Source: Candidatus Methanomethylophilaceae archaeon
Lineage (GTDB): Archaea; Thermoplasmatota; Thermoplasmata; Methanomassiliicoccales; Methanomethylophilaceae
Direction: 5' to 3'
Assembly (NCBI GenBank): GCA_944320495.1
Contig: CALUHR010000005.1
Coordinates: forward strand, 160,001 to 224,000
Length of the DNA stretch: 64,000 bases
This document shows, piece by piece, positions 8,029 through 32,155 of this stretch; position 1 is the first letter of the stretch; each line of letters opens with the position of its first letter. The notes under the pieces were generated by a model. That model searched no databases. It was not told the origin of the DNA and was given only the letters and a program-made list of their open reading frames with translations. A program made the position numbers and the translations under genes.

Positions 8029-8094
8029 GATTGCACGCGGGGGGGGGGGTCCGCTGTCTTCGGCTGTCCTCCCCGTCCTCCGTTCGGAGGGAAA
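8029..8094 (+). promoter_or_regulatory. Poly-G (G11) leader with SD-sequestering hairpin, copy 1
   Basis: GATTGCACGC-G11(8039-8049)-TCCGCTGTCTTCGGCTGTCCTCCCCGT-CCTCC gttc GGAGG-gaaa-ATG; near-identical to 10874-10941. Confidence 0.75.
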
Positions 8095-10873: not shown

Positions 10874-10941
10874 GATTGCACGCGGGGGGGGGGGGTCCGC
10901 TGTCTTCGGCTGTCCTCCCCGTCCTCCGTTCGGAGGGATAA
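10874..10941 (+). promoter_or_regulatory. Poly-G (G12) leader, copy 2
   Basis: G12 at 10884-10895; otherwise identical to copy 1 through GGAGGGA. Confidence 0.75.
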
Positions 10942-14754: not shown

Positions 14755-14824
14755 ATGCACGCGGGGGGGGGGCGACCGATTCTGTCTTCCCTCCTCGTCC
14801 TCCGCATAAAAAGGAGGGAAACGA
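14755..14824 (+). promoter_or_regulatory. Poly-G (G10) leader, copy 3 (diverged)
   Basis: TGCACGC-G10(14763-14772)...TTCCCTCCTCGT-CCTCC gcataaaaa GGAGG-gaaacga-ATG; stem kept, loop changed. Confidence 0.7.
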
Positions 14825-21095: not shown

Positions 21096-22634
21096 ATGAA
21101 CTGGAAGATGGCATTCGCCGTCGTTCTGATCATAGCGGTCGCCGCAGGGGCCGCCGTCATGGGCCTCGACGCCGCCGACGACGGCGGCATCGAGGACACC
21201 TACGTTGACAACGAGGTGTTCCAGGTGCCCTATGCCGCGGACGGTTCCATGGGCTCCGTCGAGATGGAGGGCTATCTGTCCTGGGATGAGGTGACCTTCA
21301 CCGCCGTCCCCAGCCAGGGATACTCCTTCGACCGCTGGGCCTACGCGTCCGACGGCTCCACCTACTCCGAGAGCATCTCCTTCACCGTACCGATCGGGAG
21401 CGTCCCCGATGTGGTGGCGTACTTCGTCCCTCTCGAAGGGAACAAGGTCGTCACCCTCGAGTGGGACATGCCCGCCTTCGACGGCGACGACATCGAGGTT
21501 GTCGCGGTCACCCACGATTCGTTCTCCGTCGCCATAGACTCCGCCGAATGGTGGGAGTCCGTCTACGGCGACGGCGACACCCAGAGGCACGCGACCTCGG
21601 ATGTCCTGGTCCCCTCGGCCCTGGTGGTATGCGACGGCGTCGTCGACGCCATAGCGGACCACCTGGAGCCGATGATGGCGGGGCTCACGGACACCCAGAG
21701 GGCGATCGCTGTCATGTACTTCGTGCAGGACGCGATTGACTACCGCGAGGACATCTCGCTGTACGGCGAGAGCGAGTTCTGGGCCCTGCCGATGGAGACC
21801 GTGTACTCCCTGGAGGGGGACTGCGAGGACACCTCCACACTGTATGTGGCGATCGCATCCGTCCTCGGCCTCCAGGCGGGGTTCGTCTCCTTCGAGGACC
21901 CCTCCGCCGGCCACATGGGCGCGGCCGTCGCCATAGTCGACGGCGCGCCCGTGTCCGGCAACGGGGTCTTCGGGATCGACGGGACGACCTACGCCTTCGT
22001 GGAGACCACCTCCGACGGGTACAACTGCCCCCTCGGCTCCCTGGGCACCTACCAGGGAGGGGTGACCTTCGACATCGACGACGGCAAGTGGACCCCCCTC
22101 TTCTACGAGGAGGGGACATTCACCTCCGGTGCCACCGCGCCGATCGCCGGGTCCTCCGACCCGGCGACCCAGTACGGGGTGGTGTACGGCTCCTTCTCGG
22201 AGCCGCCCTCCATCCCCCTGGGCGTCGGCGACACGTTCCTCTACGTCCCGACAACCTCCCTCCCGAGCGAGATCGCCGCCTCCGGCGACGGCCTCGTCTC
22301 GGAGGGGGGATTCCTTATCTGGGATGCGGAGGCGAACGAGCTCTCCGGGACCGCAGTCGAAGAGGGCACCTACACGGTGACCCTCTCCGCCTCCTGGACC
22401 CACGGGGAGCTGGAGCAGACCGCCACCCAGACGATCGTGTTCACCGTCTCCTCCTCCGCCCCGGACTACTCCGGGGAGGACGTGGAGCTGGTGTACTCCG
22501 CGGCCACGGGCGAGTGGAACATCGTGACCACCGAGCCCGTCAGCCCCGAGAGGGACAACTCGGTCCTCTGGATGGCGGCCGGCGCGCTGGCCGTCATCGT
22601 GGCGGGACTCCTGATCTGGAGGACGGTAGCATGA
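21096..22634 (+). CDS. Membrane-anchored transglutaminase-like cysteine protease (BTLCP/LapG-like motif) with Ig domain
   Basis: DYREDISLYGESEFWALPMETVYSLEGDCED, GHM, YAFVETT (Cys-His-Glu); signal peptide; C-terminal TM. Confidence 0.75.
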   Translation: MNWKMAFAVVLIIAVAAGAAVMGLDAADDGGIEDTYVDNEVFQVPYAADGSMGSVEMEGYLSWDEVTFTAVPSQGYSFDRWAYASDGSTYSESISFTVPIGSVPDVVAYFVPLEGNKVVTLEWDMPAFDGDDIEVVAVTHDSFSVAIDSAEWWESVYGDGDTQRHATSDVLVPSALVVCDGVVDAIADHLEPMMAGLTDTQRAIAVMYFVQDAIDYREDISLYGESEFWALPMETVYSLEGDCEDTSTLYVAIASVLGLQAGFVSFEDPSAGHMGAAVAIVDGAPVSGNGVFGIDGTTYAFVETTSDGYNCPLGSLGTYQGGVTFDIDDGKWTPLFYEEGTFTSGATAPIAGSSDPATQYGVVYGSFSEPPSIPLGVGDTFLYVPTTSLPSEIAASGDGLVSEGGFLIWDAEANELSGTAVEEGTYTVTLSASWTHGELEQTATQTIVFTVSSSAPDYSGEDVELVYSAATGEWNIVTTEPVSPERDNSVLWMAAGALAVIVAGLLIWRTVA

Positions 22635-23941
22635 GCGCAGCCAGAAGGGCCATCGCCCTGATGGCCGTGATCGTGACCCTGACGGCCGCCTTCGCTGTTG
22701 TGGGAACCGTAGGGTTCGACGACAGCGAGGGGTCTGTCGAGATTGTCGACGGATTCAGAGCGGAATCCGAATCCGAGATGACCCAGATGGTCCTCGACGA
22801 GGACGGTACCGAACTCATCGAGATCACGGCTGTGATCCGCTCGGACGGCTGGGTGAAATTCACATACGGCCCCGTGCTCGAGGACAGCCGCAATTATCTG
22901 GCATACACGATCGGCTTCAAATTCGGCGATAACCCCCTCAGGGAGGGACACTCTGCGATGGAGGGCGTTAATCCCGCACTCATAGAGAACGCCGGACTCC
23001 AGCCGACCGGCGAGGGTTACGGATACGCCGAATTCTACATGGCGGAGGATGGGGTAAGTGCAGACACCCCCATCGGCCCCGTGACCAGGTTCGATTTCAC
23101 CTTCACCGCCCAGACAATCTACAACTACACCACAACGATAACATACGATGCCAACGCGACGGGAGATTACAACCTCCCTCCGACGACCTCCCGCGAGGAC
23201 AGTAGGACATCCGCGTCCACCATGAATGTGAGTCTCACCGCCTCCTCGACCGAGCTCACCCGCGACAGGTACGTCCACGTCGGATGGAACACCAAAGCCT
23301 CCGGCGACGGCGTCCACTGCGACCTCGGAGGGAGCATCGACGTGAGGATCGGCGATGACATAACCCTCTACGCCGAGTGGGAGATTGTCTCCCATACCGT
23401 GTCGCTGTACACGACCGACGACACCACGCCCTGGAAGCAGGTGTCGGTCCAGGACGGACAGGTACTGTCCGTCGGCGACCCGACCCCGCCCGAGGGACAG
23501 TTGTTCGCCGGATGGTACACCGACAACACCCGTTCCACCCCGTTCGACCCCACTACGGCGATCACGGCGGACGACGCCCTCTTCGCCAAGTTCGTGGACG
23601 AGCTGGAGTTCACCACCACGCCCACGGCCAAGGCCAACGTCACCTCCGTGGAATCCAGCGGCACGTTCGTGTTCGACTCCGGTGCATCCGCATCGGCCGC
23701 CAAGGTGCTCTGGGAGTTCCCCGACGGCACCACATCCACCGACAGGGTGACCACGCACTGGTTCGAACCTGGAACCCATACTGTCAAGCTGACCGTGTGG
23801 AACAGCAACGGCGAGATGTCCGAGACGGAGTTCGACGTCACCGTCACCGACGGTAACGACAATCTCCCGATCCTCTGGATCGCCGCGGGCATCCTCGCAG
23901 TCGCAGTCATCGGCATCGTGATCTGGAGGGTTGCGATATGA
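22631..23941 (+). CDS. Adhesin: two InlB B-type repeats, PKD, TM
   Basis: HVGWNT...TLYAEW, FAGWYTD...LFAKF, WEFPDGTTS...HWFEPGTHTVKLTV; ATGA overlaps at both ends. Confidence 0.85.
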   Translation: MSAARRAIALMAVIVTLTAAFAVVGTVGFDDSEGSVEIVDGFRAESESEMTQMVLDEDGTELIEITAVIRSDGWVKFTYGPVLEDSRNYLAYTIGFKFGDNPLREGHSAMEGVNPALIENAGLQPTGEGYGYAEFYMAEDGVSADTPIGPVTRFDFTFTAQTIYNYTTTITYDANATGDYNLPPTTSREDSRTSASTMNVSLTASSTELTRDRYVHVGWNTKASGDGVHCDLGGSIDVRIGDDITLYAEWEIVSHTVSLYTTDDTTPWKQVSVQDGQVLSVGDPTPPEGQLFAGWYTDNTRSTPFDPTTAITADDALFAKFVDELEFTTTPTAKANVTSVESSGTFVFDSGASASAAKVLWEFPDGTTSTDRVTTHWFEPGTHTVKLTVWNSNGEMSETEFDVTVTDGNDNLPILWIAAGILAVAVIGIVIWRVAI

Positions 23942-25323
23942 ACGCATCCAACCGCGCGGTCGCCATCCTGGCAATCGTCGTCACCCTTCTCTCGGCATCG
24001 TTCGTGGGAATCGTATTCTCCGACGATGCCGACGCCAGCAGCACTCCGACGGAGCTCATCCACATGGGCACTGCCTCGGACAACATCACATCCGACAACC
24101 CCGCCGTCATCGAATACGGCGGAGAACCCGCAGTGGAGGTCTACGTCAACAGCAACCTCTCCGACGGCGAATCCGCCGAATCCTGGGACAAGACCGTCTA
24201 CTTCCGCTTCGTTTCCGACGCGCTGAAGGGCTACAACATCTACATCTACGACACGTGGTACTTCACGGACGGTTCCTCGGACGAGTACAACGGGAACAAC
24301 GCTCTCAACAGGAGCAACGAGTACTGGAACACCAACGCGTGGTCCTCGCTCAGGCCCGTCAACCTGACGATGGACAGCGGGGTCAACCGCATCGTCATTC
24401 ACGCCTACATCAACGACCAGGACAGCGGCTACTCGGGGAAACCCGACAGGCTCTCCGGGACCAACGAGGTCACCTTCGACTTCACCCTGGGCAGGACTGA
24501 CGGGTACACCTACGTCACGAAGGTGTCCTACGACATCAACTACTCCGGGGGTTCCAACCCCAACGCGACCTCCACCGATCCCGTGTACCGGCCCTCCGCG
24601 TCCACGGAGAATGTGAAGGTCAAGATCGCGGGCGAGCAGACGAGGTCGGGTTACACCCACGTGGGATGGAACACCTCCTCGTCCGGGAACGGCACCCACT
24701 ACGACGTCGGAGCCACCATCGACGTGAGGATCGGCTCCGAGATCACCCTCTACGCAGAGTGGCAGATCGACAGCCACTCGATAGCACTGTACACGACTGA
24801 CGACTCCAACCCGTGGAAGACGGTATCCGTCCAGCACGGACAGCATCTCTCGATAGAGGATCCGACGGCCCCCGAAGGGAAGCTGTTCGCGGGCTGGTAC
24901 ACGGACAACACCAGGACGCAGCCCTACGACTATCCGAGCGTGACGGCGGACGATTCGCTGTATGCTTTGTTCGTCGACGAGCTGGCGTTCACCACCACGC
25001 CGACGGCGTCCCAGAACGTGACTCCCATCGAGCCCGAGGGGACGTTCATGTTCAGCTCGCTCGAATCCGAATCCGCTGCGAAGGTTCTCTGGGAGTTCCC
25101 CGACGGGACGACTTCTACCGACAGGGTGACGACCCATTGGTTCGAACCCGGTTCCTACAAGGTAAAGCTGACCGTCTGGAACAGTCTCGGAGAAGCATCC
25201 ACCACGGAGATTCAGGTCGAGGTCGGAGAGGAACCCGACGAGGATTCGAACGTCCTGATCTGGGTTACCGCTGGGATCGCGGTCGTGATCGTCGCCGTCG
25301 TCGTGGCGAGGAGGTTCATATGA
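23938..25323 (+). CDS. Adhesin: two InlB B-type repeats, PKD, TM
   Basis: Same stalk as the previous gene with a different head. Confidence 0.85.
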   Translation: MNASNRAVAILAIVVTLLSASFVGIVFSDDADASSTPTELIHMGTASDNITSDNPAVIEYGGEPAVEVYVNSNLSDGESAESWDKTVYFRFVSDALKGYNIYIYDTWYFTDGSSDEYNGNNALNRSNEYWNTNAWSSLRPVNLTMDSGVNRIVIHAYINDQDSGYSGKPDRLSGTNEVTFDFTLGRTDGYTYVTKVSYDINYSGGSNPNATSTDPVYRPSASTENVKVKIAGEQTRSGYTHVGWNTSSSGNGTHYDVGATIDVRIGSEITLYAEWQIDSHSIALYTTDDSNPWKTVSVQHGQHLSIEDPTAPEGKLFAGWYTDNTRTQPYDYPSVTADDSLYALFVDELAFTTTPTASQNVTPIEPEGTFMFSSLESESAAKVLWEFPDGTTSTDRVTTHWFEPGSYKVKLTVWNSLGEASTTEIQVEVGEEPDEDSNVLIWVTAGIAVVIVAVVVARRFI

Positions 25324-26645
25324 ACATGACTAAAACCCGCGACATCAGCGGGAGATCGGCCGCCATCGGCATCGTCGTGCTGATGGCGGTCGCCGCCCTG
25401 GCGATCGTGCCGATGTGCTCGGACGATTCCGAGGCCGTGACGGATCTCGGAGTTTACACCGGCGGAACCAATCTGAGCAGTAAGGACGCCGCATATTCTG
25501 GAATCGAGGTTGACATCTCCAGAATCAATGGGATGACACTCTTCGTCTCAATGGGCGCCCAAATCAAAGTGACATATGACAACTACGTCGACAAATATGA
25601 TGATAATTCGAATGGATTGGGAATGGGATGGAGCATCGGATCTGGCACAGTTTCCGAATACGGAAGTTGCAGATGGGAGGATGCAGCAATCAATTCCTTC
25701 AAACTCATCTGCCTCGATCCGAACAACATTACGAATCTGGGACCATACACTGGCGGAGAGAATCTGAGTTTTGAGAAAGCTGCATATTCTGGCGTAAACG
25801 CCAGTGTCACAGATGATGCTTTTCCAAACACTGGTGCGGGTCGTCCAAATGATATCTATGTGTTGCCTGGGGCCCATATACGCATTGTTGCAGAGGACAC
25901 GGGCCCTTCTTTCACATACTACCCGAATTGGTTCATCTCGTCTACCAATGGGAGAGGGTTGGAGGTGATTGATGGGACAGTCCCAGGCTACGGCGAATGG
26001 TTGGTGATGTGGGACGGTATCGTTCACATCGACATAGGGCTAGTGTGTCTGGGCCCCAGCCACACCGTAACCTTCAACTCGAACGGAGGTTCCGATGTCC
26101 CCAACCAGGTGACCGACTCCGACGGATACGTCATCGCCCCCGAGGACCCCGTCCTCGCGGGCCATGTGTTCGCGGGATGGTTCACCGACGACGGAGAGCC
26201 CTTCGACTTCTCCCAGCCCGTGACATCGGACATCACCCTCCACGCCCAATGGGTCGACGAGCTCGTGTTCACCACGACTCCCACATCCAACGGCACGGTC
26301 CAGTCCGTCCCGATGATGGAGGGCATGATCGTCTGCGACGCCACCCAATCTTCCGATTACACGTCCATCCTCTGGGACCTGGGGGACGGGACGTTCTCCA
26401 CCAACACATACGTCACCCACAGCTACGCCTCTCCGGGGCAGTACACGGTGACGCTCACGGTCTTCAACGAACATGGGAGTGATACCACGGAATTCACTGT
26501 GAACGTGCCCGAGGATGCCGGCAGGGGGGGGGGGGCAGTGACCTCTTGCCCTACGTTCTCGTCGCCATCCTGGCACTCGTATCGGGAGGTCTGGTCCTCA
26601 GACGTCTCCTGTGAACTGATGACAAATGAGGGGGTGTTCCAGTGA
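25320..26645 (+). CDS. Adhesin (DLGxY-repeat head, InlB B-repeat, PKD); anchor out of frame at G12 tract
   Basis: Alternate frame after 26535 encodes GSDLLPYVLVAILALVSGGLVLRRLL* (TGA 26612-26614). Confidence 0.8.
   Translation: MNMTKTRDISGRSAAIGIVVLMAVAALAIVPMCSDDSEAVTDLGVYTGGTNLSSKDAAYSGIEVDISRINGMTLFVSMGAQIKVTYDNYVDKYDDNSNGLGMGWSIGSGTVSEYGSCRWEDAAINSFKLICLDPNNITNLGPYTGGENLSFEKAAYSGVNASVTDDAFPNTGAGRPNDIYVLPGAHIRIVAEDTGPSFTYYPNWFISSTNGRGLEVIDGTVPGYGEWLVMWDGIVHIDIGLVCLGPSHTVTFNSNGGSDVPNQVTDSDGYVIAPEDPVLAGHVFAGWFTDDGEPFDFSQPVTSDITLHAQWVDELVFTTTPTSNGTVQSVPMMEGMIVCDATQSSDYTSILWDLGDGTFSTNTYVTHSYASPGQYTVTLTVFNEHGSDTTEFTVNVPEDAGRGGGAVTSCPTFSSPSWHSYREVWSSDVSCELMTNEGVFQ
26524..26535 (+). repeat. G12 tract before anchor (one G short of in-frame)
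   Basis: gca-G12-cagtgacctc; 10 or 13 G restores the anchor. Confidence 0.9.
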
Positions 26646-27964
26646 ACACCCTCTCGAACCTCAAAACCATAGCCGTGGCCGCAATCGCGATCGTCTCGGC
26701 GCTGATGTTCGTACCGATGATGTCGGACGATTCGGATGCGGTCACGGATCTCGGAGTTTACGCCCAAGAGGGGGAGAATGTCAGTTCTCCGACGGCGCTC
26801 TACTCCGGCATCAATGTATGGACAACCGTAGCATTCGTTGACAACAACGAGGTTTACTACGTCTCCCCCGGATCGGAGATCACTTTCGTCATGAACGACA
26901 TCGGGGGACTCACCATCGATTCGAAGGACAAACTCGGATTGAAGGAGGATTCGAGTGTTGGAATCTATGGCGGAATCAGCGGGACGATCACCGGCCAGGG
27001 GTATGTGGAGATCACAGCCGAGGGGGAGTTTTTCTCCAAGTTCTCGTTCTACGTCGCCTGCATCGACCCGAACGGCAGTTCCGATCTCGGAACATACGAT
27101 GGCGGACCCAACATGAGTTCGCCAGAGAAGACGTATTCCAAGATTGAAATACGTGGCTATACCGACTTTTGGAATTTGATCGACGGTTCGAATCTCGTCG
27201 TCTACGTCTCTGATGGGTCGGAGGTTTGGGTCCAGGGTGCCATAATGAGCACGAATCTGGAACGCAACGATCTGAATCTCTCCATTGCTGACATGGAGAT
27301 ATTGTATGGGACGGTCGAAGGCTATGGAACCACGATTTTCAGATCCGAGGCATCACTGTTCACGGTTGTGTGTATGGCCCCTACTCACACCGTCGTCTTT
27401 GACTCCGAAGGCGGTTCCAGTGTCCCCAATCAGGTAACCGACACAGACGGCATCGTCACCGCCCCCGAGGACCCCGTTCTCTCAGGATACATCTTCGGCG
27501 GCTGGTACACCGAGGACAACATCCCGTTCGACTTCTCCCAACCCATATCAGAGGACATAACGCTCCACGCCAAATGGATCGAGACACTCGTCTTCACCAC
27601 GGTTCCAACATCCAGCGGTACCGTCAAGGCCGTCCCGATGATGGCGGGAACCATCGTATGCGACGCATCCCAATCCAGCGACTACACGTCGATCCTCTGG
27701 GATCTCGGGGACGGGACCACATCCACCAACACGTATGTGACACACTACTACAGCCAGCCCGGGACCTATGAGGTAACCCTCACCGTCTTCAACGAACACG
27801 GAACGGATGTCACTACATACACTGTCGAGGTTCCCGAGAGCTCGACCGGGGGGGGGGGCATGACAACCTTCTCCTCTACATCGCAGTCGGACTGCTCGCA
27901 ACCATTCTCATCGCAGTCGTCGCATTGCGGTTGCTCTGACCACTCCATGGGGGCGGTCGCGTGA
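26642..27964 (+). CDS. Adhesin paralog; anchor out of frame at G11 tract
   Basis: Alternate frame encodes HDNLLLYIAVGLLATILIAVVALRLL* (TGA 27937-27939). Confidence 0.8.
   Translation: MNTLSNLKTIAVAAIAIVSALMFVPMMSDDSDAVTDLGVYAQEGENVSSPTALYSGINVWTTVAFVDNNEVYYVSPGSEITFVMNDIGGLTIDSKDKLGLKEDSSVGIYGGISGTITGQGYVEITAEGEFFSKFSFYVACIDPNGSSDLGTYDGGPNMSSPEKTYSKIEIRGYTDFWNLIDGSNLVVYVSDGSEVWVQGAIMSTNLERNDLNLSIADMEILYGTVEGYGTTIFRSEASLFTVVCMAPTHTVVFDSEGGSSVPNQVTDTDGIVTAPEDPVLSGYIFGGWYTEDNIPFDFSQPISEDITLHAKWIETLVFTTVPTSSGTVKAVPMMAGTIVCDASQSSDYTSILWDLGDGTTSTNTYVTHYYSQPGTYEVTLTVFNEHGTDVTTYTVEVPESSTGGGGMTTFSSTSQSDCSQPFSSQSSHCGCSDHSMGAVA
27848..27858 (+). repeat. G11 tract before anchor (one G short)
   Basis: acc-G11-catgacaac; 9 or 12 G restores the anchor. 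Confidence 0.9.
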
Positions 27965-29247
27965 CCGCCCCTGTAAACCTCAAGACGGCCTTCGTGACGA
28001 TTCTCGCTTTGGCATCCGCGATGGCGTTCGTCCCATTGATTGCGGACGATTCCGACGCGGTTACCGATCTCGGGACGTACGCTGGCGGGGAGAATCTCAG
28101 CACCCCAGACGCCGCCTATTCTGGGATAGTTATAAACAGCGTGGGAACAACGCTTCCCAGCAACAAGGTGTTCTACGTAACCATTGGTGCGGACGTGAGT
28201 CTGTCCCTTGGAGATGAGAATCAGAGTTTCGATTGTGAGAATAACGACCTCGGCCTGTACAATGACGACTTGTACGGCGGTGTCGATGGAACCGTCTCCG
28301 GGTACGGATGTGCGGAGATTTTTGCGGATTACAGTTACAGCAGATTCTACATCCTGATTGTCAGTCTCGATCCGAATGGAGTGACCGATCTGGGATCGTA
28401 CGACGGTTCGGTGAACGTCAGCAGCCCCACCGCCACATATTCTGGCATTACGAAGCACGGGGACTGGTTCGAGACGATTTACGTCTCGCTTGGTGCGGTC
28501 ATAGACGTCAGGGAGGAGAATGAACCGCTTGTTCTCTCCCTGTCGAACGATGACATGGGCATCTATGTCTGGACGGACAACAGCATCGACCAGCTCGGAG
28601 GCACGGTTTCAGCCTATGGTTCAACCGATGTGATGATCTCCTACTCTACGGGCGGTTACAGCTATACCATAACATGTCTAGAACCCATCAAAACATACAC
28701 CGTCATCTTTGATTCCAACGGCGGTTCCACAGTGGACAACTTCGTCACCGATGCCGACGGACTCGTCAAGGAACCCGACGACCCGGTCCTGGCGAACCAC
28801 ATCTTCGCAGGCTGGTACACGGACGATGGCGAACCCTTCGACTTCTCGCAGCCGATCTCCGAGGACATAACCCTCTATGCCCAGTGGGTGGACGAGCTCG
28901 TCTTCACCACCATTCCCACATCGGATGGCATCGTCAAGGCTGTTTCCAGTCTCGCAGGCACGATCCTCTGCGACGCCACGCTGTCCTCCGACTACACCTC
29001 CCTTCTCTGGGATCTCGGTGACGGAACGACATCGACCAACACCTACGTCACACACTACTATGGCGAACCGGGCCGGTACAAGGTGACTCTAACTGTTTTT
29101 AACGAACACGGGAGTGATACCACGGAATTCACAGTCAATGTGCCCGAAGAGTCCGTCGGGGGGGGGGGCAATGAACTCCTTCTCTACGCCGCAGTCGGAC
29201 TGCTGGCACTCGTCGCGGGAGGTCTGGTCGTTAGAAGGTTCCTCTGA
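27961..29247 (+). CDS. Adhesin paralog; anchor in frame
   Basis: Ends GGGGNELLLYAAVGLLALVAGGLVVRRFL*. Confidence 0.85.
   Translation: MTAPVNLKTAFVTILALASAMAFVPLIADDSDAVTDLGTYAGGENLSTPDAAYSGIVINSVGTTLPSNKVFYVTIGADVSLSLGDENQSFDCENNDLGLYNDDLYGGVDGTVSGYGCAEIFADYSYSRFYILIVSLDPNGVTDLGSYDGSVNVSSPTATYSGITKHGDWFETIYVSLGAVIDVREENEPLVLSLSNDDMGIYVWTDNSIDQLGGTVSAYGSTDVMISYSTGGYSYTITCLEPIKTYTVIFDSNGGSTVDNFVTDADGLVKEPDDPVLANHIFAGWYTDDGEPFDFSQPISEDITLYAQWVDELVFTTIPTSDGIVKAVSSLAGTILCDATLSSDYTSLLWDLGDGTTSTNTYVTHYYGEPGRYKVTLTVFNEHGSDTTEFTVNVPEESVGGGGNELLLYAAVGLLALVAGGLVVRRFL
29158..29168 (+). repeat. G11 tract before anchor (in frame)
   Basis: gtc-G11-caatgaactc. Confidence 0.9.
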
Positions 29248-29274
29248 TCTTGCTATGGCCGAGGGGGCGGTCGA

Positions 29275-30186
29275 ATGACCGCCTCTACAAACCTAAACAA
29301 GGGGATGTGCGGAATCGCCATCCTGGCTATCATCATTTCATCGTTGTCTGGGATGATTATGGTTTTCTCAGAAGATGGAGAAGCCGCTACGAGAGGTGGT
29401 TCTGGAACCCCCGAAGATCCATACTGGGGAACATTCGGTGGTCTGACAATTTATCTTCAGTGTAATCAGCACGATGGTGCCTATTTCCTCGTCGGCACCG
29501 TGTTCAGGTATGGTGAGCCATCTAGTGGTGAGGGATTCTATGACATATCTCCTGGATTTGGCCTAATCAGTGATGACTATACCATCGTAGGCACTGTGAC
29601 AAAGTCTGGGCAGTTCGATGCCCACCTCAAGAATCCAGCACAGGCCGATGAAATAACTCCAGCACACTTCACGATTTATTTCATAGACGAACCAGTCACA
29701 CCAACATATACAGTCGTCTTCAACTCCAACGGCGGATCGGACGTCCCCAACGCCACCACCGATGCCAGCGGCCTTGTCAAGGAACCCGACGATCCAGTCC
29801 TTGCGGATCACGTCTTCGCGGGCTGGTACACCAGCGACGGCGAGCCCTTTGACTTCTCCCAGCCCGTTACGGAGGACATAACCCTCCATGCACAGTGGGT
29901 CGACGAACTCGTGTTCACGACCATACCTACATCCGATGGCACCGTAAAGGCCGTGTCCGGCCTTGCAGGTACCATCCTCTGCGACGCAACCCTGTCCTCG
30001 GACTACACATCCCTTCTCTGGGACCTGGGCGACGGCACCTTCTCCGACAACACCTATGTCACGCACTACTACTCCGAACCCGGAACGTACACCGTGACCC
30101 TCACCGCGTACAATAACTACGGCACCGACGTCACGAAATTTACTGTCGAAGTGCCCGAGAATCTCGCTGGGGGGGGGGGGCAATGA
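29275..30186 (+). CDS. Adhesin paralog; truncated right after G12 tract
   Basis: Reads GGGGQ*; anchor frame encodes NDSILLWVPVILLAAILAAVVITRLL* (TGA 30260-30262). Confidence 0.8.
   Translation: MTASTNLNKGMCGIAILAIIISSLSGMIMVFSEDGEAATRGGSGTPEDPYWGTFGGLTIYLQCNQHDGAYFLVGTVFRYGEPSSGEGFYDISPGFGLISDDYTIVGTVTKSGQFDAHLKNPAQADEITPAHFTIYFIDEPVTPTYTVVFNSNGGSDVPNATTDASGLVKEPDDPVLADHVFAGWYTSDGEPFDFSQPVTEDITLHAQWVDELVFTTIPTSDGTVKAVSGLAGTILCDATLSSDYTSLLWDLGDGTFSDNTYVTHYYSEPGTYTVTLTAYNNYGTDVTKFTVEVPENLAGGGGQ
30169..30180 (+). repeat. G12 tract before anchor (one G extra)
   Basis: gct-G12-caatgacagc; 11 or 14 G restores the anchor. Confidence 0.9.
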
Positions 30187-30283
30187 CAGCATATTGCTGT
30201 GGGTCCCCGTCATCCTCCTGGCAGCCATCCTCGCCGCCGTGGTCATCACTCGGCTGCTCTGAACCCATTGCGGAGGTGGTCTG

Positions 30284-32155
30284 ATGGCCACCTCCGTCAA
30301 ACATCTCAGGGAATTCGCCGTCCTTGCGGTGGCGATTTGCTTGATTTCGATCATCTCCTTCGATGACGTGTCGGCGGATTCGGACGACTACTATCGCTAT
30401 GTCATTCATACCGATGGCACCATTGAGGGAAACTACACACCCATCGGAACATCATCGTCCACTGGCAGCTACACCAGCGTGAATGGTACGAACAGCGGGT
30501 CCTGGGCGTTCGACGAGGATGGATATGGCCCCTTCGGCTCGTTCTACGCGGCATTCGATCCTGCACAGGACAACAAGATGATTGGCCATCTGGATCCCGA
30601 TGACCTGACCAGGCTTGTCGATGGTACAAGCATTGCCGGACAACGGTACAATGTGATGTGGTGTCTCCCGACAGTGTACTGGCTCACGGATTCGAACGGG
30701 AATCTGATTCTCACCGACGACCCAGATGCTGGCGGAACTGCCTACGCGCACACCATAGATGGACACGTCTACGGCTACATCGGGATAGGAGTTTATGAGG
30801 CTAGCACTTGGACTGTCAATGGTAAGGCAATCTTAACATCATTCACAGAGATGGACCCAAGAACAGCTACAACACCAATCATCATGCGCGGTTGGGCAAA
30901 CAATCAACTTGTCAACACCTCTAATGACGAAACAAACGGTTGCGCCATGTTATGGAACTTCTACCAGTGGCAGTTGTATCGTTTCTGCGCTGTATCGGTT
31001 ATGGGATCTTGGAATTCCCAATCGGTTGCTGGGACTGGTAGTTTCAATTACAATAGATTCGATGGATATGCGGAAACCACGGGACAACTCGACAGCTCTG
31101 GACCTTACGCTGGAGACAAAACAACTGGCTCTGCAGGATATTGTACCCCCGTCAAGGTTTTCATCGAAAACGCATGGGGATCCACCGAAGAGTATGTTGA
31201 CGGCGTGGTAATTGATTCGCTCGAATACTATATCGATCAATCCGCGGTACCAACAGGAACAACGTCTGGAACATACATAACCAATCCGAATGGAAAACTA
31301 CCTCTGGGTTTAACTGGAGTGTATGCAGGCAGCCCCTCAACCGAAACCCAGATATGGGGTATGCCGACATCGATGGCGTCGACGCCTTTGCTATATGACG
31401 CGGCCATAACCACAAATGATACGGGAACACGCATCATGCTGGTTGGAGGCGCCCCCACAACTACGGATTCAATAATATCTGTCGCACAGTTCGGAGGCAT
31501 TTCGGCTATTAATTGCTCATACGTCGGGACATCCAGCATATATGTGGGGTCCCGTCTCGCCTTCGTCTTCGACGACGACCCATTCCAGCCCCAGACACAC
31601 ACCGTAACCTTCTCCACCGGTTCCTCCACCACCATCCCCTCCCAGATCATCGAATCCGGCCAGACCGCCCTCACACCCTCCAACCCCACCCTCGAAGGCT
31701 ACGTCTTCGACTGCTGGAGCACTTCCCCGACATCCCGCGTCCCCTACGACTTCAACACCCCCGTGACGCAGGACATCACCCTCTACGCCTTCTGGGTCGA
31801 GACCCTCGTCTTCACCACCACGCCCACCTCGCAGGGAACCGTCTCCGCCGTCCCGCGGATGGCCGGCACGATCCTCTGCGACGCGACGGGTTCCAGGGAT
31901 TACACGTCCCTGCTCTGGGACCTCGGCGACGGGACGCTCTCGACCGACAACTACGTCACCCACTACTACTCCGATCCGGGGACCTACACGGTCACGCTGA
32001 CCACGTACAACTCCCAGGGTGCGGACGTCACCACCTTCACCGTCGAGGTGCCAGAGGCACCCGGCGGGGAGGGCGACGGCGATCTCTTGCTCTGGGTCGC
32101 CATCGGGCTGTTGGTTTTACTGATAGTCGTCGTGGTGCTAGCGAGGATTCTATGA
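30284..32155 (+). CDS. Adhesin with phage tail-fibre/CLec-like head, InlB B-repeat, PKD, TM
   Basis: IENAWGSTEEYVDG and VGG...VGSRLAF motifs; linker codons are interrupted (GGC GGG GAG GGC GAC GGC), so no G tract. Confidence 0.8.
   Translation: MATSVKHLREFAVLAVAICLISIISFDDVSADSDDYYRYVIHTDGTIEGNYTPIGTSSSTGSYTSVNGTNSGSWAFDEDGYGPFGSFYAAFDPAQDNKMIGHLDPDDLTRLVDGTSIAGQRYNVMWCLPTVYWLTDSNGNLILTDDPDAGGTAYAHTIDGHVYGYIGIGVYEASTWTVNGKAILTSFTEMDPRTATTPIIMRGWANNQLVNTSNDETNGCAMLWNFYQWQLYRFCAVSVMGSWNSQSVAGTGSFNYNRFDGYAETTGQLDSSGPYAGDKTTGSAGYCTPVKVFIENAWGSTEEYVDGVVIDSLEYYIDQSAVPTGTTSGTYITNPNGKLPLGLTGVYAGSPSTETQIWGMPTSMASTPLLYDAAITTNDTGTRIMLVGGAPTTTDSIISVAQFGGISAINCSYVGTSSIYVGSRLAFVFDDDPFQPQTHTVTFSTGSSTTIPSQIIESGQTALTPSNPTLEGYVFDCWSTSPTSRVPYDFNTPVTQDITLYAFWVETLVFTTTPTSQGTVSAVPRMAGTILCDATGSRDYTSLLWDLGDGTLSTDNYVTHYYSDPGTYTVTLTTYNSQGADVTTFTVEVPEAPGGEGDGDLLLWVAIGLLVLLIVVVVLARIL

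Follow-up and report, generated by a model that had tools for sequence, protein, structure and literature searches.

The window analysed here is a stretch of 64,000 nucleotides (nt) from the genome of a Candidatus Methanomethylophilaceae archaeon (contig CALUHR010000005.1, positions 160,001 to 224,000), and it contains an array of tandem surface-protein genes in which four consecutive members, all on the + strand, carry an uninterrupted run of G's at a homologous position in a DNA alignment. The run lies 3' of the last strand of the PKD domain ('...F/Y-T-V-x-V-P-E-xxx') and 5' of a hydrophobic segment of 25-26 amino acids (aa) that ends in RRLL, LRLL, RRFL or TRLL. A sequence-only reading of the window had described pure tracts of G12, G11, G11 and G12 between the PKD domain and a membrane anchor, with only the third gene in frame and an intact anchor in another frame of the other three. 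The tracts are present base for base where that reading put them, they occupy homologous columns of the alignment, and translation of the frames agrees with its assignment of the anchors.

Gene 1 (25320-26645) encodes a surface protein with a signal peptide, two beta-sandwich modules, Flg_new and PKD. Its G12 tract (26524-26535) leads, as assembled, into a hydrophilic tail of 35 codons (36 aa counting the Ala codon across the tract end) whose TGA overlaps the GTG start of gene 2, and its anchor (SDLLPYVLVAILALVSGGLVLRRLL and a stop; hydropathy 2.47) lies intact and out of frame at 26537-26614, coming into frame at G10 or G13. Gene 2 (26642-27964), a paralog, has a G11 tract (27848-27858) followed by a tail of 34 aa that ends at the GTGA of gene 3, and its anchor (HDNLLLYIAVGLLATILIAVVALRLL and a stop) is out of frame at 27859-27939 and would be read at G9 or G12. 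Gene 3 (27961-29247) is the sole one of the four with its anchor in frame, reading through a G11 tract (29158-29168) into GGGGNELLLYAAVGLLALVAGGLVVRRFL and a stop. Gene 4 (29275-30186), a shorter paralog, stops one codon past its G12 tract (30169-30180; GGGGQ and a stop), with its anchor (NDSILLWVPVILLAAILAAVVITRLL and a stop) out of frame at 30182-30262 and in frame at G11 or G14. From tract to stop the distance is 0-36 codons, and the genes are 303-441 codons long. The count of three off genes out of four describes this one assembly and should not be taken as a fixed property, and the states in the window could include homopolymer miscalls.

The neighbouring members of the array, likewise on the + strand, are anchored and have no tract. 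The next paralog, gene 5 (30284-32155), shares the scaffold of Flg_new and PKD and provides an internal control, having a fixed anchor behind a Gly/acidic linker in mixed codons (GGC GGG GAG GGC GAC GGC in the aligned columns), again as the sequence-only reading had it. The upstream members (21096-25323) have a C-terminal membrane helix.

The proteins belong to a methanogen of the Methanomassiliicoccales: mcrA is present in the genome, and the closest McrA sequences come from metagenome-assembled genomes (MAGs) of Methanomassiliicoccales and Methanomethylophilaceae, with Candidatus Methanoprimaticola hominis at 95%. We know of no culture of this organism. In genes 1-5 and the preceding paralog (23938-25323), Flg_new (PF09479, the Listeria-Bacteroides repeat) is followed by PKD, both above the Pfam cut-offs (43-56 bits against 27, and 38-51 bits against 23.5). 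An AlphaFold model of gene 3 (mean predicted local distance difference test score 74.7) has an N-terminal hydrophobic helix at residues 6-22, corresponding to the signal peptide, two beta-sandwich modules at about 34-239, then Flg_new and PKD, and at its end a disordered Gly linker (398-405) and a terminal helix (405-427). Foldseek returns only strings of Ig/cadherin-like beta-sandwich ectodomains and names no ligand. Most large surface-protein genes of the window follow this layout too, with a signal peptide, an ectodomain, a C-terminal membrane helix and a short basic tail. Proteins with Listeria-Bacteroides repeats have been discussed as adhesion factors of host-associated Methanomassiliicoccales (PMC7883539), and the products of genes 1-4 are putative adhesins. 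A GlyGly-CTERM/archaeosortase sorting signal was considered for their C-termini and rejected. Because neither an archaeosortase (Exosortase_EpsH) nor a Rhomboid gene was found in the 90.6% complete genome, and the NCBIfam models of CTERM sorting signals gave no match even at E<=10, the C-terminal segment is best read as a plain membrane anchor.

Reading frames behind the tracts

Past the tract, the three frames share one plan across the genes, namely an anchor, a quick stop and a hydrophilic tail. The anchor frame runs for 25-26 aa with a best 19-residue Kyte-Doolittle score of 2.5-3.1, the stop frame ends within 0-1 codon (C-A-A/G-TGA, or CA-TGA), and the tail frame gives 33-36 aa that are hydrophilic and Ser/Cys/Pro-rich, with a hydropathy of about 0 and no membrane segment. 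Relative to the anchor frame, one G more leads to the stop and one G fewer to the tail; as assembled, the tail frame is read in genes 1 and 2, the anchor frame in gene 3 and the stop frame in gene 4. The anchor frame of the three off genes (1, 2 and 4) is uninterrupted and strongly hydrophobic.

The tail frame is also fitted to the gene that follows. Its stop overlaps the next start as GTGA at 26642 and 27961, ATGA at 29275 and TGATG at 30284, and as ATGA in a second species, G060, whose array is described below. The spacers from the anchor stop to the next start (26614-26642, 27939-27961, 29247-29275, 30262-30284 and, in G060, L031:8781-8812) measure 27, 21, 27, 21 and 30 nt, and since all five are multiples of three, the -1 tail always ends on a stop that overlaps the next start. 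In the upstream paralogs that have no tract, it is the anchor-frame stop that overlaps the next start (ATGA), at both junctions that were inspected (23938 and 25320). In one of the two off states, the downstream paralog may have its translation coupled to that of its neighbour.

The stop frame has a regularity of its own. The codon after each tract ends in T (AGT, CAT, AAT, AAT and AAT at 26536-26541, 27859-27863, 29169-29174, 30181-30186 and L031:8703-8708), and this T creates the TGA of the immediate-stop frame. In a rough genome set of open reading frames (ORFs), 14% of Asn codons are AAT and 3.4% of Ser codons are AGT, but the set contains shadow frames and the paralogs compared are not independent, so that the bias is no more than suggestive. 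The TGA formed by the T-ending codon, along with a stop-free tail that leads onto the next start, is likewise only suggestive of two off states that are not equivalent, in paralogs that share ancestry. A more elaborate reading would make each gene a designed three-state switch, in which the 0 frame tethers the protein, +1 stops at the TGA drawn from rare T-ending codons (AAT, AGT and CAT before GA) and releases a clean ectodomain, and the -1 tail couples translation of gene n+1 to that of gene n; the array would then be a chain of linked stochastic switches and the first contingency-locus system described in Archaea. We regard this fuller scheme as doubtful. A separate observation on codon usage is that in-frame CGA is absent from the six adhesin genes and from every alternative tail (window 23938-32155); CGA does occur in the rough ORF set of the whole genome, where shadow frames are its probable source.

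Three defined products from one gene could also arise during expression, if RNA polymerase or the ribosome slipped on the tract and yielded a fixed mix of anchored and unanchored protein whatever the length of the DNA. Long homopolymers are known sites of RNA polymerase slippage, and in predicted RNA folds of all five tract-bearing genes (26524-26560, 27848-27880, 29158-29190, 30169-30220 and L031:8692-8720) pairing is seen between the G run and the pyrimidine-rich Leu-Leu-Leu codons that lie 8 nt downstream. However, a downstream RNA structure that would stimulate frameshifting was not consistently stable over these five genes (fold z-scores +1.1 to -3.4, overall without significance), and the frame itself varies in the DNA of otherwise identical alleles (see below), a variation that a fixed recoding signal would not need. 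An intragenic G tract in pilus genes of Bifidobacterium breve, moreover, was shown to act through replication slippage (PMC9187656). Recoding can coexist with slippage in the DNA rather than replace it, and as the explanation of the locus we consider it unlikely.

Tract length among alleles and genomes

Alleles of the tract-bearing genes were collected from public ENA, Logan and NCBI assemblies by a protein search with gene 3 and two cluster look-ups, which returned dozens of sequences; tract lengths were deduced from the proteins on the assumption of GGG codons, with DNA seen for this genome (G000) and G060 only. With sequences clustered at 90% identity or more, all three states turn up for every gene, and the 58 distinct tract-type sequences divide into 24 anchored, 22 long-tailed and 12 stopped. 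Their Gly counts vary by whole codons (GG, GGG, GGGG and GGGGG), corresponding to tracts of about G7 to G14. For gene 1, the allele of the window (P0001, tail), P0035 (...GGGQ and a stop) and P0039 (anchor) have zero differences over 402 upstream residues, and the out-of-frame anchor of the window is identical to the real C-terminus of P0039; P0011 is also anchored, and P0041 stopped. Gene 4 in the window (P0049, stop) is identical over 298 upstream residues to P0050 (tail), P0054 (stop) and P0055 (anchor) form another pair, and other alleles of this gene are anchored (P0051-53 and P0058) or tailed (P0013, P0056 and P0057). Alleles of gene 2 are anchored (P0066 and P0006), stopped (P0065 and P0067) or tailed (P0043 and P0045). 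P0020, P0079 and P0080, of a second species, show no difference over 380 upstream residues and between them cover all three states. Long contigs, which probably had good read coverage, differ in state as well, with the stop on a contig of 69.7 kilobases (kb), the anchor on two of 85.5 and 79.9 kb and the tail on one of 21.6 kb, and on another NCBI contig of 111 kb gene 2 is off and genes 3 and 4 are on, a combination that differs from that of the window.

A close array was found by a genus-wide protein search in one other species only, G060. Its DNA has a pure G11 at the homologous site, in the same alignment columns, in frame and with the same three frames behind it. The sequence-only reading had named orthologs with linkers in mixed GGN codons among the results that would refute it, and this result was not found, the second species having its pure G11 there. 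A scan of metagenomes with the family alignment gave one relevant locus, L042 from the human gut, which has a mixed-codon linker and an anchor and added no tract alleles.

Could the differences in length be errors of sequencing or assembly, all genes being truly anchored in frame and the out-of-frame lengths being homopolymer miscalls? Runs of G11-12 are error-prone on every platform, a long-read assembly may underlie this genome of only 14 contigs, the short contigs (1-3 kb) that hold many of the public alleles may be thinly covered, and the shift needed by two of the three off genes here is +1, as is usual for under-calling. Yet 34 of the 58 distinct sequences are out of frame, which is far above a consensus error rate; lengths differ by whole codons across the deduced range, the state also differs among long contigs, and gene 4 needs -1 and not +1. 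No litter of frameshifts is seen at shorter runs elsewhere in the genome, where ORFs of 1,200-1,700 aa are intact. Error is, on this evidence, a very unlikely source of the pattern. The caution over sequencing error in the sequence-only reading stands for single states, those of the window included, and has little force for the pattern as a whole, in which near-identical alleles occupy all three frames.

Gene decay, in which the off paralogs would be redundant copies turning into pseudogenes through ordinary inactivating frameshifts, draws some plausibility from the many paralogs of the array and from the three off genes of this genome. But the tract is the exact site of every frameshift, with none elsewhere in 300-440 codons, the anchor frames are free of stops and of degradation, the same gene is on in sister alleles, and the tract is kept pure in two species. 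We hold decay to be highly improbable. Both error and decay are poor accounts of the overall pattern, because identical alleles differ in state, long contigs differ, the G060 tract is pure and the anchor frames are uninterrupted.

Several further features of the arrays were seen in passing. P0062 and P0076, set against P0009/P0063 and P0007, have the same N-terminal passenger and a different C-terminal scaffold, tract and anchor (gene-2-like versus gene-3-like), swaps that indicate probable recombination or gene conversion between paralogs of the array. The G060 contig (G060:C36; L031:12100-12109) ends at '...gcgcctggg', exactly where another anchor-junction tract begins, in keeping with an assembly that broke at a run of heterogeneous length. 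The same contig has a C12 run (L031:1251-1262) in an intergenic, AT-rich, promoter-like region. At L042, a G13 run (L042:1122-1134) lies about 150 nt downstream of the stop of the anchored mixed-codon paralog; it is probably a tract of the leader type described next and would extend the tracts to a relative from the human gut.

The tracts of the array belong to a class of long runs found across the genome. In its 1.77 megabases, G/C runs drop in number with length, from about 3,440 (length 5) through 365 (6), nine (7) and four (8) to one (9), and there are then 22 of length 10-13; the distribution is bimodal, and the long tracts are a separate class and not its chance tail. Pure GGG coding is otherwise very rare, being found in the rough ORF set in 1 of the 37 runs of four Gly and in 2 of the 316 runs of three. 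Of the 62 species genomes of the genus, 59 have runs of at least 10 G's, and closed single-contig genomes are among them. The anchor-junction layout is not repeated at the other long tracts of this genome, and a search for the pattern G9+CA(N)TGA gave three further matches, all of them unrelated G9 runs. A second class of tract, G10-12, precedes large secreted-protein genes, standing about 55 nt upstream of their ATG, at window positions 8039-8049, 10884-10895 and 14763-14772 and elsewhere in this genome at G000:C5:83098-83108 and 105826-105836, within a conserved leader 'attgcacgc-Gn-tccgctgtcttcggctgtcctccccgtcctccgttcggaggg' whose CCTCC can pair with the ribosome-binding site GGAGG. A G9 run 14.6 kb before the window (G000:C5:145408-145416) is contained in an ORF that has, beyond the tract and in a different frame, a DNA-methyltransferase motif (…DPFLGSGTT…), and this ORF may encode a phase-variable methylase. 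Neither MutS (PF00488) nor NucS/EndoMS (PF01939) was found with these two models in the 90.6% complete genome, which fits poor correction that would favour the persistence of slippage products. Such products persist likewise in Campylobacter and Helicobacter.

A probable switch of membrane tethering

We think it likely that the four tracts are contingency loci, at which slipped-strand C-terminal phase variation switches the membrane tethering of the adhesins gene by gene. The tracts have the marks of a repeat contingency locus, being over-long and pure, changing the product with their length, and differing in length (as deduced from the proteins) among near-identical alleles. They also have those of C-terminal phase variation, lying near the end of the coding sequence with protein made in every frame and a different C-terminus in each, and those of repeat-controlled anchoring, with the anchor signal in one frame and absent from the others. 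The interpretation of the tracts as a slippage-switched anchor, first offered by the sequence-only reading, is thus supported.

In such a switch, a hypermutable G tract within the linker codons would gain and lose G's through strand slippage during replication. The linker would tolerate extra or missing glycines, so that only the anchor would go in and out of frame, each change of length moving the last 25-26 codons among the three frames. In the ON frame, the product would be a type I membrane protein with a signal peptide, beta-sandwich modules, Flg_new, PKD, a Gly linker, a helix and a short basic tail. In both OFF frames, a complete ectodomain would be made, and it would presumably be exported, because the signal peptide and ectodomain are intact, and released, because the other frames have no hydrophobic segment and nothing would hold the product on the cell. 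If the genes switched independently, a lineage could display up to 2^4 combinations. Switching within a clone would be expected to occur at a high rate, and its benefit could lie in changing partners, in avoiding phages or host factors that use these proteins, or in the use of released ectodomains as decoys.

Some points weigh against this reading. The evidence is at the level of assemblies, all of them public, and the tract lengths of alleles beyond G000 and G060 rest on protein sequence and the assumption of GGG codons. The database sequences are not proven to be independent samples, and some of the states, including those of the window, could be homopolymer miscalls. The near-even spread over the three frames gives no sign that any one state is favoured. 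What the frames predict is a released ectodomain, which may or may not be stable and may or may not have a phenotype.

Repeat-slippage phase variation is a central strategy of host-adapted bacteria, and the signature carried by this gut methanogen consists of long G/C tracts across the genome, their placement in or before surface-protein genes, and natural alleles that differ only in tract length. If the reading is true, gut archaea diversify their surfaces stochastically as bacteria do, which would have consequences for how methanogens select their bacterial partners, maintain themselves in hosts and evade viruses. Automatic annotation will call such genes truncated or frameshifted, and counts of 'adhesin-like protein' genes in archaeal MAGs will depend on the state of the tracts. 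A switch placed on the anchor and not on synthesis would also make it simple to test whether ectodomains, once released, serve some purpose of their own.

Relation to known systems

We found no published description of such a phase-variation switch in archaea. A 2025 review treats archaea as unexplored in this respect and leaves archaeal distributions of phase variation to future work (PMC11868660), and a 2010 survey of 18 archaeal genomes gives tract statistics only. C-terminal phase variation is a named class in bacteria, described in Helicobacter canadensis (Snyder et al. 2010, PMC2823697) and Neisseria gonorrhoeae (Zelewska et al. 2016, PMC5320596). As in those species, length changes here move the C-terminus among three frames while synthesis continues, and one frame can reach the next gene. 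The bacterial cases, however, mostly concern enzymes or small membrane proteins in which few residues change, whereas here, in an archaeon, the sole membrane anchor of a large surface protein is the element affected, and this in four tandem paralogs.

The closest precedent in concept, so far as it can be judged from its citation in PMC5320596, is the repeat-mediated presence or absence of cell-wall attachment motifs in Streptococcus agalactiae, where a repeat near the 3' end likewise decides whether a surface protein keeps its anchoring signal; the anchor in that citation is a sortase LPXTG motif on peptidoglycan, and here it is a plain membrane helix in an archaeon. Sortase-dependent pilus genes of B. 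breve resemble the present genes in coming from a gut organism and in having a G tract inside a gene for an adhesion structure, with replication slippage giving a range of lengths in the population (Penno et al. 2022). The tract there gates synthesis of the pilus protein (ON/OFF), whereas here the ectodomain is encoded in every frame and only tethering would change.

The capC/capD autotransporters of Campylobacter, which have poly-G tracts and for which lineage-specific decay has been reported (PMC7168839), are similar in another way. They too form a surface-protein family with variable passengers, a conserved C-terminal anchoring module and a G tract upstream of or inside the genes, and this genome has leader tracts (8039, 10884 and 14763) besides its coding tracts. 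Their anchor, though, is an outer-membrane beta-barrel, and no tract placed exactly at the junction of passenger and anchor is reported for them (PMC7168839). What is new in the present array is therefore the domain of life (archaea), the element switched (a membrane helix) and the arrangement (four tandem paralogs), within a phase-variation class known in bacteria.

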